A DNA stretch of 40,960 nucleotides, from the IMG/VR virus record IMGVR_UViG_2534681674_000028, positions 1-40,960 of that record; one strand, 5' to 3'. The stretch is from a virus. Taxonomy: Duplodnaviria; Heunggongvirae; Uroviricota; Caudoviricetes. The position numbers were made by a program. This document shows positions 1 through 6,000 of this stretch, piece by piece. Position 1 is the first letter of the stretch; every line of letters begins with the position of its first letter.

Positions 1-3000
1 TTATCTGTCAATTCCCCAGCACGCCAGCGCGCTCTCCTGGTCACGCCGTGAGACCTGACCGTAGCAGTTGTTTGAGCGAATACGGCAGTCTCTGCCACCG
101 TCCTTAATCCACCAGCGAATCGCCTCGCATGCTCCCCTGCGGTCACCAGCATTAATCCGTCTGTAAAACGTCGACGGGAAACACTTACCGGGGCCAATGT
201 TGTACGGACAGAATGACGCAATCCCCGCTTTCTGGGGTTCGGTCAGTGGCACTCTGATGTTTTTCTCCACCCATGCCAGCGCCTTATCACGTTCAATGGC
301 GTTAACCTGGTCGCATTTCCCCTTCGACAGCTTCATGCCAGGAATAACAGGCTTACCATCCACCCGGGTGGCTCCACGGCAGATGGTCCAGATACCCGCA
401 CCATCACGGTATGCCGTGGTGTGGTTACCTTCTTTTTCGTCAAGAAACTGGTCGAGAATTTCAGGCGCAGACGCACCAGCGGCAATCAGCGCCAGAACGG
501 CAGCCGACAGGCCGTATTTGATTTTGGTGTTCATGGATATTTATCAGGATTTATCGGCAACAGATAACGAGCCAGCTTATATACGTCCTTTAAGATAAGT
601 CAGTCCTGGATGAAACCAGTAAGCCGGCACTTTTTTAAAGGGCGGGTTGTCAAACTCACGAAGAAGAGCCTCCCGCACAACTGCATCCTTGTCCGCACCA
701 CTGGCCAGCGCTTCAATCTCAGCAGCTATCTGCAGATATCCCATGCAACGACCAATGCACTTCATCAGCCCCTGCTTTTTATTGTTCTTCAGGTAATCAA
801 TGGCAAATTCAATGAGCTCCTCACTATGCTGGTGCGATGGCGGTGTTACTTTTCCATTTTCTGAGATGGTTATTTTCCCAGCATCACCGGATACAACAAA
901 GGATGGCCGGTTACACTCCCATTCCAGGTCACTGAAATTATCATTATGAATACTGAAACACTCTGCGAGATTTCTGCTCATCACTTTCCGGCAATAATCG
1001 TAAAACGCAGCAAACTGCTCATCGCGGCGTTTTTTTCAGGCTGCTGAAGATGCTCTTTCAACCATGAAGCGCAGCTTAGATTCGCCGCGCGATCAGGAAT
1101 AGCTTCTTTCATTTCGTCTGCTGCAAGCACCTCATTTTTTGTTGGGGTGCTTTTTTTCAATTCAGCGATATAGCACTCCAGTTTTTCAATACGCGATTCA
1201 ACATCATCTTTTTCTGACCGCAGTGTTGACGGCGGCATCTTCAGAGAACAAGTAATTCTTCCCGGTAGCTTTCCTTTGTAGGTTATCAATACATCCTGCG
1301 CATCTAAAATTACGGGGCGCTTTTCCGGTGACGGTTCATCCCCTTCGCATAACCCGGCAACAATATCCATGAAAAACTGCTTCGCCTGTTTTTTCGCCTC
1401 AGCTTCGTAGAACTCCAGCGTGGCACCTTCAGTACGGTCAAGACTAATCGCCACATGTGGCAACAACAACGACGGATGCCCGCCAATTTCAAGTGCCACA
1501 GTAACAGCAATCTTATCCGGGTAATTATTTATCTCTTTAACAACCAGTTCGTATTTTTTCTTCATCGCTTTAGTCTCCCCGCGCCGTCTTACGGCGGTCC
1601 TCCCTGATTTTGAAATACAGGTTAGTCAGATACGTCAGCAGGCCAAACAGCAGACTCCCCAGTACACCTATTGCCACCCACTGGGACGGAGAGACTTTGT
1701 CCAGCAGCTGCAGTAACCAGTATCCCGTCCCACCGCTGACGTGTGTATGACACACCCGTTGTGATTTTTTCCATCTGATGTATGTCTCCGTCACCGCCGA
1801 CAGAAAATGAAAGTAAAGAAAAACAAAAAAGCCGCCAGTGTCACCCACTGACGGCCAACGCCGGGAGCCGTGATTATGGCATTCAGGCTCTGCTAAAAAT
1901 GCCAGATAACATTCCGGCCTCCCCTGATTCAGGTTATAAATGACACAATATCTTGACAACATCCGTCACTGTCTGTCAGAAAATGTACTGCCAGATATAA
2001 GTATCATGTGAAGTACATCTACCCGTTTTAGCCAGCGTCCTTCAGAGTGGGCGCTGGCTTTTTTATTATGCTGCCGGTGCATTTATCTCCAGCACCAGAC
2101 TTTCTATCTCAACGCCATACGCTGCATTTTTTGTAACATCCGTCAGCGTCAGCGCATTCAGTCCCAGTGTCAGACTGTCTTTTATAACCTGGAATGCCGG
2201 GCCAGCCACTCCATTCAGTTTCGGAGTAACCGTGGCACTGCCGGCGGTGAACACCAGCTCCAGCGTCTGCCAGTCGTTACCGTAATCGCCGAACTCCCCC
2301 AGCTTCGTGTTTCCGGCTTTCCTGTGATGCATCAGATTCACTCTGCCGTCAGTGGTCTGAGTGAAGTACGACATCAGGAACGGATTACCGGTACCCGTCA
2401 TCGCCACACCATCAGGAACGGGAGCATCCGTATACAGATAAATCCCCAGCCCGAACTGATTGTTGGTCAGCGCGCCTGACAGGCGGAACTTACAGGTCAG
2501 TCTGCCGCCCTGTGTCAGCAGGGTAATTGCGTCATCCACCGGATGCGTCAGGGACCAGGTTTTATTGCTCTGCTTGGTGATCTTAAATACACCATCTGAC
2601 AACTGAATTCCGCCATCCTTAATGCTCCAGCCCTGCGCAGCAGCCTCTCCGTCTGCCGGCAGCAGGGAGATTGTGCGAACGGCGTATCTGCAGACGGACC
2701 CGATGGCGTGTTGCCGCCGGGCGAGGGTTTGATTTCCGGTGCCTTACCACTGATGAAGGCTGAGGTGCGCCCGGCTGCGTTCAGAATAGCGGTTGCCAGA
2801 CGATCCGGAATAATGCTCCTGCGCGCCCATGAACTGAAATGTGTCGGGCGGTTTGATGATACCTGGTTTCCATTCGTTCTCGATGCCGCACCGTAATATC
2901 CTGATGCCGGAATATCCGGATCTTCTGCCGGCGCGTTAGTGGCGGTATTGACACCGTTACCGTCTGTCATGAAGGGCACAAAATAAACGCCCTCACTCTC

Positions 3001-6000
3001 CCTGTTTTTATACCCGCCGTACACGGTGTCGTACTGGGTAGCGTATGTATTTTTCCAGTAATACGTCGTGTCACCACAAATCCACGGCACATCTGCAGCA
3101 CTGCCACCATGGCACTGCGCGTTAAACACGGAGAGGTCAGCACGAAACTGTGTCAGCATGGCTGTAAACAGCGCAGGTTGCTGTGCGTGGGTGGCGGCGC
3201 TCATGTCAAACTCTCCCTGCATCCAGCACACCGCCAGCAACACATTTTTCGGGTTCTTCTGTAATGCAGCTTTAGTGCGCGCAATCAGGTCCTGATATAA
3301 CGGTTTACCCACACCCCAGCGCGCCGAATCCTGGCTGGCCCCCGTGTCCGCACTGAATGTCCCCTCCGCGCCCTGGGTAAATGCCGAACCACCACGACAG
3401 CATGGTACCAGCAGGATCCCCGCGTTATTCGGGATATACGGGAGCAGTTTTTTGGCAATATGTAAGCCCTGGCCGACACAGCCGTACTGCCCTTTGCTCA
3501 GGTCTGCCTTCGGATGATTCAGCGTACTCATATCCTGCACATCATGCAGGCAGTGGTCGGCCGGAATAATATCGTTATATCTGCAGGCAGCCCCACCCGG
3601 CGTCACTGTACTGCGGCGCGCCAGCTGTTTAATGCGCGGATCCGGAGCATCGTATGAATCCGGCAGCGGAAGCCCTTCACCGTAAGCCATGGCATTGGAC
3701 TGCCCGGCCAGTACGATGACGTAGTACCAATCCGGCTCAGTTGCACCACTGACCACCACATCACCTTCTGCTGTAATCGCCTGCATCAGGGTATAAGGGG
3801 TTATGGCCACCGGACTACCAAACGGCTGCCAGCCCTCTTTCAGTTTGTGTGTCAGCTTTTCCGCAAGGTCTGACGGCGACGCCGCCCTGACAACATCATA
3901 ATGTTTAAATGTCATTATTCCTCCCGGCCGGGATAGTGTATTAAATCAGATATGGAGTGGGCTGTAGTCCGGAAGCCTGAATGACACACGGGGACTACAG
4001 CCCAAGAAATGAAAAAAGGCCACGCAGTTGCGCAGCCTGATAAACCCTGGTTAAAATCCACACGATAACAACACAACAATATCAGTATCTCATGCTGTTG
4101 CCCGAACCTACTCGGGCGTTTTTTGCATGTAAAAAGGCTCCTGCGATGAGGAGCCTGGATATATGCCTAATCTCTGTATACAGCATGATGCCGGGTGCCT
4201 CCCGGTGAATTCTGCAATGACCAGACAGAATCCGCAACTTGCCTATACAATACGCAACCAAACATCTGTCATTATGCCCCGCCGCCCAGGGGGATTCATC
4301 ATGCAGGATTTTTTTAACAAACGCTCAGCATGTCAGGCAACAGTCAACTACCTGAATTGTGAGGCATTTAACATTTCACTGTCCGGTGTCTTTCCTGTAA
4401 TAAAAAGCCCGCAAAAGAGAGTCAGGGCAGATAAGTGTGGTGTGGCGCGTTGTACTGGATTCGAACCAGCGACCTGGCGATTATGCGTCGCTCGCTCTCA
4501 CCACTGAGCTAAAGGGCCGGGCGCAGGATAATAACGGTACGTAACTAATCCTGCAATATCATCCGTTCTGACTGACTAAATCCTGTACTTCCCTGACCGT
4601 CTGCTCAAAACGTTCAGTCTCCAGCTCAACGCCAGTTGCACGACGCCCCAGCGCCATCGCGGCTTTGACTGTCGAACCCGACCCCATGAAGAAATCTGCA
4701 ACCAGGTCACCCGGACGACTGCTCGCACTGATTATCTGCTGCAGCATTTCTGCCGGTTTTTCGCACGGATGTTTCCCGGGATAGTACTGCACCGGTTTAT
4801 GCGTCCACACATCCGTGTACGGCACCTGCGCCGTCACGCCAAAATCCGCCGCAGATGCTTATATTCACTCTGCAGTTCCGCATACTGCCGGTTCAGTGAA
4901 GTATACGTCTCCAGCAGCTGGTGGTGGGGCTTTTCCAGTTCACCGCGCTGATGCTTCTCTTCTGCCACCCGGGCAAACAGCGCCTGTAATTTCAGATAAT
5001 CGCTTTCGTTCGGTAGCTGCCACTGACTGGCACTGAACCAGTGCGACACCATGTTTTTCTTTCCTGTGGCATCCACTATCTGTTTTGCCGTTATCCCCAG
5101 GGCAGCACGCGCATCACGAAAGTAAGAAATCAGCGGAGCCATCACATGCTGTTTCAGTGCCCTGCCCTTCGCCTCATACCCGGCATCTTTCGGACGATAC
5201 GGCCCCTGATAATGTTCCGCGAACAGAATGCGCTCTGTGGCGGGGAAATACGCCCTCAGGCTTTCCTTGTTGCACCCGTTCCAGCGTCCGGACGGCTTCG
5301 CCCAGATAATATGGTTCAGCACACTGAAGCGTTCACGCATCATGATTTCAATGTCAGATGCCAGGCGATGGCCACAGAACAGGTAAAGACTTCCGGCAGG
5401 TTTCAGCACCCGCCAGAACTGCGCCAGACACTGGTCCAGCCATTTCAGGTAATCCTCATCACCTGTCCACTGGTTATCCCAGCCCTCAGGCTTCACTTTA
5501 AAGTACGGCGGGTCCGTGACTATCAGGTCAACAGAATTTTCGGGTAACGACCGGATAAATTCCAGGCAGTCGGCGTTGATTAACTCACAACTGGATATTT
5601 TTACAGTATTAAACATGGATCATTAAGCCTGTCTCTGATAGGCTCATACCGCTTTTGCGCAAAGCAGATGGGCCTGAGGTTTGCTTGTGACCCCAAGCAT
5701 GAGCAGATGGCTGGTGAGTGCCCCTAACACCCACCAGCCGCCCATTTACCACAAATAAAAAAGCCTTCAGGACTGAAGGCGTCTGTAACAACCAAACTGA
5801 TAGTCTGCCAGACCCGCCATAACAAGCTGGGTCAGTATTAGCTGGCAGCGTTCGCGTGAAAGGTACGTATTCTGTGCAATCTCCCCGACTGTCGCCGGTT
5901 CGGTAACACTTAATTCATTAAAAACCACTCTGGCGGTTTCTGTCATATCCTGCTGTTTCAGCATGTCTTTTTCCCTTTTCCGGTTAACGTGACACACCAA

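Follow-up and report, generated by a model that had tools for sequence, protein, structure and literature searches.

The first 6 kb of the window, by which we mean the whole 40,960-nt stretch of DNA analysed here, carry the late region of a lambdoid prophage: Q, a DNA methyltransferase gene, a tRNA-like gene, nanS-p, a holin gene, YdfR and an endolysin gene (Table 1). The window comes from the beginning of contig AEZJ02000027.1 in the draft genome (GCA_000194215.2) of the STEC O5:H- E. coli strain 97.0246; only 67 nt of the contig lie before window position 1. The prophage is inserted at ompW and is interrupted by an IS at 9900-11210. The adjoining remnant is decayed, with many IS elements and pseudogenes. 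One IS copy of the window contains a slippery A run.

Gene order is that of the late region of EHEC Stx-type lambdoid prophages (Q, DNA methyltransferase, tRNA, (stx), nanS-p, S holin, YdfR, R endolysin), but stx genes are absent from the window between the tRNA-like gene and nanS-p, and five single bases are lacking relative to these relatives. The prophage of FRIK1989 (NZ_CP111101.1, 1.332-1.338 Mb) shares 99.5 % DNA identity over window positions 560-5750 and encodes an intact holin, NanS-p and methyltransferase of 68, 616 and 352 aa. Because none of the complete E. coli genomes in RefSeq is near-identical to the window over its full length, the comparison was run segment by segment. The remnant region matches 2013C-4974 and OkiPb01713 at 99.8 %, but these genomes do not have the present prophage at ompW. 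ARAGORN finds no tRNA in the window, though relatives annotate a 71-nt tRNA-Met at identical sequence and Rfam recognises part of a tRNA at 4453-4512; the missed tRNA does not reflect damage to the window.

Table 1. Late-region genes and sequence changes. Positions of changes refer to the plus strand; the affected genes all lie on the minus strand.
Feature	Position	Strand	Description
Endolysin	1-534	-	intact, 177 aa; PF00959; SAR-like N-terminus YGLSAAVLALIAAGASA; triad E35-X8-D44-X5-T50
YdfR/DUF1327	577-1565	-	split: 194 aa (981-1565) and 134/135 aa (577-984)
Holin, phage 21-type class II (pinholin family)	1570-1774	-	two one-base deletions; intact protein 68 aa
Holin deletion 1	1742/1743	-	GG to G; coding ACACCAC to ACACAC; codons 11-12
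Holin deletion 2	1729-1731	-	C4 to C3; coding G4 to G3; codons 16-17
nanS-p (DUF1737, SASA esterase, DUF6645)	2066-3915	-	one base missing; intact protein 616 aa
nanS-p deletion	2682/2683	-	single A lost; non-repeated base
Beta-class N6-adenine/N4-cytosine DNA methyltransferase	4559-5616	-	one base missing; intact protein 352 aa
Methyltransferase deletion	4845/4846	-	single A lost; coding CGGCGGTATTTTGGC to CGGCGGATTTTGGC
Isolated one-base deletion	5696/5697		C lost; intergenic, upstream of the methyltransferase; single non-repeated base

Interrupted reading frames of the late region

The list of open reading frames and the alignment to FRIK1989 and seven more genomes confirm the original prediction that the holin, nanS-p and methyltransferase genes are each split, and comparison with intact homologs pinpoints the indels in each gene. 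Intact homologs sharing the same frame structure were sought and not found. In the holin, two one-base deletions put the start (1622-1774) out of register with the membrane-spanning part, which follows the frame of ORF 1570-1962; the second deletion is located 14 nt downstream of the first on the coding strand. The shift had been placed in an ACACAC run, which is indeed the site of deletion 1, but as a single event. As deposited, codons 1-11 are out of frame with the remainder, and restoring two bases yields a single open frame from the start through both transmembrane segments. The repaired holin DNA is identical to that of FRIK1989 and its protein is present on at least 999 contigs, while the depositors' 61-aa product is found in this assembly only in a look-up among about 15 billion proteins.

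The break in nanS-p, expected near 2650-2720, falls within that range and leaves one ORF of 455 aa for the N-terminal part (2548-3915) and another for the C-terminal part (2066-2602). After repair, the gene is identical at 1851 of 1851 nt in seven other genomes (loci L045-L050 and L052), and all three Pfam domains are matched. This domain architecture, together with DNA identity to the gene downstream of stx1AB in these seven genomes, points to a predicted member of the NanS-p family. Of about 15 billion proteins, the 455-aa fragment is found on the present contig alone. A substitution at 2652 (D422 in NanS-p), close to the deletion, was considered as a private change and rejected, being an existing allele of Stx1-phage copies.

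The methyltransferase is divided into products of 260 aa (4834-5616, containing DPPY) and 92 aa (4559-4837, containing FFMGSGST). The motifs thus lie in different frames, as had been noted, but the lost base only adjoins the T4 run at about 4840-4860 that had been held responsible, and the length of the run is unchanged. The repaired protein matches PF01555 with 150.9 bits over residues 29-340, with DPPY at residues 35-38; this match and the position of DPPY ahead of FxGxG support its assignment to the beta class. It corresponds to protein P0143, present on at least 999 contigs, and the 260-aa fragment is confined to the present contig among about 15 billion proteins. The 92-aa fragment was found on 37 contigs and rejected as a shared frameshift, as contig ends or other disruptions occur there. 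Upstream, after repair of the isolated deletion, the intergenic sequence 5617-5750 is identical to two loci (L020 and FRIK1989 L001). This deletion and the YdfR split were absent from the original prediction.

YdfR is split by a T7 (A7) run at 1030-1036, where T8 yields a 329-aa protein. Its 194-aa product is present on 75 contigs, one of them a 5.5-Mb chromosome, and its 134-aa product in independent NCBI and Logan assemblies. Judged by this distribution of predicted products, the YdfR split is a genuine, shared allele, that is, a polymorphism. Since its fragments are found on many contigs, the protein look-up is able to detect real shared frameshift alleles where they exist. The same lesion recurs in independent assemblies for YdfR and does not for the holin, NanS-p or the methyltransferase. 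The frameshifted orfB of the IS629 copy at 26656-27967, previously cited alongside these three genes, is confirmed in the window sequence, with an extra A at 27603-27605.

Origin of the missing bases

Relative to the relatives present in collections, private changes at 560-5750 comprise five one-base deletions and three substitutions, compared with one and 28 in about 20 kb of the remaining window (Fisher p = 7e-4). If indels made up 10 % of mutations, the probability of at least five deletions among eight changes would be 4e-4. Neighbouring unique DNA is clean: positions 27968-30569 are 100 % identical to OkiPb01713, and 31993-40960 is free of isolated coding indels. Such indels are also absent from the early part of the prophage (11-25 kb). 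In the second 97.0246 contig, private small indels are confined to the first 3 kb, and there are none in the two finished genomes aligned with it.

Similar losses recur elsewhere. A second holin in 97.0246 (AEZJ02000042.1), 342 nt from the contig end, combines A6 to A7 with the same G4 to G3 change, and the DEC8D holin (AIGI01000019.1) combines A6 to A5 with, again, G4 to G3. These N-terminally shifted products belong to a 90 %-identity cluster with only five sequences. In AEZQ02000001.1, which belongs to a third draft of similar accession series, the methyltransferase carries two deletions in homopolymers, at most 3.3 kb from the contig end. Indel errors in the consensus of draft bacterial assemblies, such as miscalled run lengths and bases dropped at repeats and contig ends, show the same features, namely private one-base indels, an excess of deletions, clustering at contig ends in multi-copy DNA and recurrence in the same run; unlike in such errors, three of the five losses in the window are outside homopolymers.

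We consider it probable that the frameshifts are errors of the draft consensus in multi-copy prophage DNA and not mutations of the bacterium. This reading is favoured because the lesions are private to the assembly, their repair yields exactly the known, common alleles, they cluster at contig ends in multi-copy or repeated DNA with an excess of indels, and the G-run loss recurs in two other contigs, one of them from another draft. Genomes of this kind have several near-identical copies of the late region, and it is here that the contig breaks. Reads from paralogous copies, or thin or low-quality coverage near the break, may then give a consensus in which single bases are dropped, and the true genes of the strain would be the common intact alleles. 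Of the two alternatives in the original prediction, real decay of the prophage and sequencing errors at homopolymers, error is the better supported, but homopolymers fit only part of the set. In the holin, a G4 run and a CC pair have each lost a base, whereas the losses at 2682, 4845 and 5696 concern single non-repeated bases.

Genuine and very recent pseudogenisation, in which single-base deletions hit the holin, NanS-p and methyltransferase genes of an unselected ompW prophage in 97.0246, is unlikely. The three deletions outside homopolymers would suit it, as would the IS insertion, the neighbouring IS-rich and pseudogene-filled remnant and the real YdfR frameshift within the same block. Real frameshifts of nanS-p do exist in finished genomes, an example being that of O103:H2 12009, where the gene carries a frameshift annotation. 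However, a ratio of five one-base deletions to three substitutions departs strongly from neutral expectation, isolated coding indels are absent from the prophage's own early region, and each lesion is unique to this assembly. Descent is also hard to fit to the same G-run loss in three holin genes of two drafts accompanied by different second indels. It is decidedly unlikely that the lesions are real in the specific sense of an stx-less lambdoid prophage that lost holin, NanS-p and methyltransferase very recently through a strongly deletion-biased process; the 61-aa holin, with an internal GTG restart and without the first part of TMD1, might then be an unregulated pinholin beside an intact SAR-type endolysin.

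The two origins could also be mixed, with short-run errors in the holin and real mutations in nanS-p and the methyltransferase. The division follows the sites, since the holin losses affect short runs and recur in other contigs, while the other two affect single bases. Yet the nanS-p and methyltransferase lesions are just as private, are all that separates these genes from common alleles and fall within the same few kilobases at the end of the contig, and a fifth loss of identical appearance is found in neutral intergenic DNA. We regard such a mixture as very unlikely, its probability being counted within those of error and pseudogenisation. Functional frame changes, either programmed frameshifting or phase variation of late genes, were considered solely because of the slippery A run in one IS copy, and are rejected as extremely improbable. 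Neither a slippery heptamer nor a repeat tract is present at 2682 or 4845, the thousands of homologues are all single-frame, and the holin would require two shifts 14 nt apart.

Lysis genes and annotated products

The lysis genes resemble the phage 21 cassette of pinholin S21 and SAR endolysin R21. PF04971, 'Bacteriophage P21 holin S', is matched over its full length by the repaired 68-aa holin, which scores 111.9 bits where the cut-off is 26 and covers positions 1-63 of the 64 in the profile; the depositors' 61-aa product likewise matches this profile; the window holin differs from that of phage 21 in that its first 11 codons are out of frame as deposited. The endolysin shares with the cassette a putative SAR-like N-terminus, weakly hydrophobic and rich in Ala, Gly and Ser, and the E-X8-D-X5-T triad. 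Its residues 12-174 align with lysozyme chains 3hde, 3hdf and 4zpu, of which we take 3hde and 3hdf to be the phage 21 SAR endolysin R21. The earlier expectation of a lysis-defective prophage after loss of the holin goes too far, since the endolysin belongs to the SAR (signal-arrest-release) type. Even when no holin is present, endolysins of this type are released spontaneously and lysis still occurs, though later and less sharply (PMC9239132).

If the missing bases are consensus errors, the true genes are intact and the frameshifts carry no implication for prophage decay or lysis. The three apparent pseudogenes should not be taken to show prophage decay, loss of sialate esterase or methylase activity, or a lysis defect, and nor should the UniRef and GenBank records based on them (EIG92309.1, EIG92362.1 and EIG92346.1). 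The value of the result is mainly one of caution on pseudogene calls in this STEC O5:H- strain. Were the lesions real, they would amount to ordinary prophage gene inactivation of little consequence, because STEC genomes usually have several nanS-p and holin copies. The 97.0246 assembly itself contains at least one further holin.

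Single-base losses in the prophage late region

An exact-protein look-up places the window in AEZJ02000027.1, a contig of 70,400 bp from the draft genome GCA_000194215.2. The strain is Escherichia coli 97.0246, a STEC of type O5:H- (PMC4551483). Window positions 1-6200 cover the late region of a lambdoid prophage, which reads on the minus strand and contains no stx genes. Beyond the integrase lies an older remnant, riddled with IS elements, that holds the effector genes nleF, nleH1-2 and nleA.

Features of the prophage in minus-strand reading order, with the integrase last
Feature	Position	Strand	Remarks
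Q antiterminator	6191-7012	-	
Small ORF		-	between Q and DNA methyltransferase in gene order
DNA methyltransferase	4559-5616	-	PF01555
tRNA-like gene	4453-4512	-	Rfam, model positions 7-64 only, 37.3 bits
sRNA gene STnc100	4125-4333	-	175.6 bits
sRNA gene AgvB (anti-GcvB)	4063-4124	+	92.5 bits
AsxR-like match	4074-4122		weaker
nanS-p	2066-3915	-	
Class II holin	1570-1774	-	PF04971
YdfR/DUF1327	577-1565	-	
Endolysin	1-534	-	
Integrase	24080-25210		far end of prophage, beside ompW fragment

Pairwise and eight-way alignments with intact homologues bear out the predicted frameshifts in holin, nanS-p and methyltransferase, and pinpoint five one-base losses. Over window positions 560-5750, identity to the closest finished relative, FRIK1989, is 99.5%; that genome carries intact genes for a holin of 68 aa, a NanS-p of 616 aa and a methyltransferase of 352 aa. 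The holin shift had been assigned to an ACACAC run; a deletion does lie there (1742/1743; on the coding strand ACACCAC has become ACACAC), but it is accompanied by a second one that shortens the run at 1729-1731 from G4 to G3 on the coding strand. nanS-p, expected to be split near 2650-2720, lacks a single A at 2682/2683. The methyltransferase, whose beta-class assignment is supported by PF01555 and by motif order (DPPY first, FxGxG last), lacks a single A at 4845/4846; the coding strand changes from TATTTT to ATTTT, so that the lost base adjoins the suspected T4 run, which is itself unchanged. A fifth isolated loss, at 5696/5697, is intergenic.

The known prophage sRNA genes AgvB and STnc100 sit between nanS-p and the tRNA-like gene (4063-4333). 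The sequence of the tRNA-like element recurs identically in relatives, annotated there as a 71-nt tRNA-Met; ARAGORN reports no tRNA anywhere in the window, and by eye the acceptor stem seems unpaired. Its missing base aside, nanS-p in this prophage, which has no stx, is identical in DNA to the copy that directly follows stx1AB in the Stx1 phages of several finished genomes; the identity suggests that late-region modules were exchanged recently.

Draft-assembly artefact or prophage decay

These frameshifts are probably a draft-assembly artefact rather than biological lesions, a reading based on sequence comparison that draws on their privacy, the alleles recovered by repair, the mutation spectrum, the clean surroundings, their recurrence elsewhere and their position in the contig. 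Among about 15 billion proteins, the 260-aa methyltransferase fragment, the 455-aa NanS-p fragment and the 61-aa product of the holin gene are all confined to a single contig, AEZJ02000027.1, whereas the split products of YdfR, which served as positive control for this look-up, occur on 75 contigs (194 aa) and on several independent contigs (134 aa), among them finished chromosomes as well as Logan assemblies made from raw runs. Putting the missing bases back yields the holin DNA of FRIK1989, holin and methyltransferase proteins each present on at least 999 contigs, an intergenic segment identical to two loci, and a nanS-p that agrees at 1851/1851 nt with the gene lying downstream of stx1AB in seven genomes (comparison loci L045-L050 and L052). 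Contig position 68 is window position 1, so the affected region lies at the very start of the contig.

Genuine recent decay of the prophage genes is the unlikely alternative. In its favour, the prophage is truly damaged by the IS at 9900-11210, some finished genomes have real frameshifts in nanS-p, and three of the five lost bases were single and non-repeated, outside homopolymers. Decay, however, fits poorly with the private changes counted against all fetched relatives: five one-base deletions versus three substitutions in 560-5750, compared with one deletion (within a mosaic patch) versus 28 substitutions in the rest of the window, about 20 kb (Fisher p = 7e-4). Indels are about one tenth of mutations in E. 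coli mutation-accumulation work, and under that assumption the probability of at least five indels among eight events is 4e-4; judged by these counts, the spectrum does not fit neutral decay. No isolated coding indels were found in the prophage's early region or in the adjacent remnant, where 27968-30569 is 100% identical to OkiPb01713. Between the decay and homopolymer sequencing errors originally proposed, error is thus favoured by the private lesions and the known alleles restored by repair, but homopolymer errors would fit only two of the five losses.

Similar indels recur elsewhere in the 97.0246 assembly and in other drafts. The second holin of the 97.0246 assembly (AEZJ02000042.1, 342-548, 342 nt from the contig end) combines A6 to A7 with the same G4 to G3 as the window holin; the two compensate each other, giving a full-length 68-aa product with 13 altered N-terminal residues and an odd N-terminus, MEKNHNRCVIHHVSGG. 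The draft DEC8D (AIGI01000019.1) combines A6 to A5 with the same G4 to G3. Apart from this similar product the altered holin is seen nowhere else, and holins altered in this way at the N-terminus cluster in a group of just five sequences. The methyltransferase of AEZQ02000001.1 has two homopolymer deletions, at most 3.3 kb from the contig end. All private small indels of the second 97.0246 contig fall within its first 3 kb, and none occur in two finished genomes to which it was aligned. Judged by their accession series, these drafts probably come from one sequencing programme, which presumably used pyrosequencing; that method would fit run-length miscalls.

STEC genomes carry several late regions that are nearly identical, and this block is matched at up to 18 places per genome. 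Draft assemblers would break contigs at such regions, and a consensus supported there by few reads, or mixing reads of different paralogues, could lose bases. Most likely, the artefact has been carried over into protein databases as strain-specific "proteins". At best, the lesions are ordinary prophage gene inactivation.

Lysis genes

By its match to PF04971, the holin is a member of the phage 21 pinholin family. The N-terminus of the endolysin is weakly hydrophobic and rich in Ala, Gly and Ser; the protein also has the triad E35-X8-D44-X5-T50 and aligns with the lysozyme chains 3hde/3hdf, which we take to be the phage 21 SAR (signal-arrest-release) endolysin. As in phage 21, the window would thus pair a pinholin-family holin with an endolysin of SAR-like features, as predicted from sequence. 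The spanin genes (Rz/Rz1) lie beyond the contig end, outside the window. SAR endolysins leave the membrane spontaneously without a holin, and lysis still occurs, later and less sharply (PMC9239132); the claim that a non-functional holin would leave the prophage lysis-defective is therefore too strong, even if the holin lesion were real.

Other frame changes

YdfR/DUF1327, absent from the original prediction, has a T7 run at 1030-1036 (A7 on the coding strand) that gives products of 194 and 134/135 aa; with T8 it encodes one 329-aa protein. Both forms are common among E. coli assemblies, the 329-aa forms on 10 (exact sequence) and 64 (close variant) contigs, which indicates that the split is a real allele, a homopolymer length polymorphism.

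The frameshift predicted in orfB of the IS629 copy at 26656-27967 was confirmed as AA to AAA at 27603-27605, which leaves orfB in two parts of 193 and 149 aa, the longer of them found only in the 97.0246 assembly. The copy at 30569-31879, separated from it by 17 substitutions, is intact (295 aa). In the IS3-family (IS629/IS1203-like) copy at 9900-11210 (minus strand), the run at the programmed-frameshift site (10832-10838) is A7, not A6, so that OrfA and OrfB are fused in a single 404-aa ORF without frameshifting. This exact protein occurs only in the 97.0246 assembly, and the A7 either is another run-length error or marks a constitutively fused transposase.

Three finished genomes (L032, L033 and L034, about 7929-10513) bear the annotation "frameshifted" for the portal gene of a related prophage, each at the same position. 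The 97.0246 contig splits it identically (434 and 407 aa), an agreement that suggests a real frame change common to these genomes, or perhaps a programmed shift.
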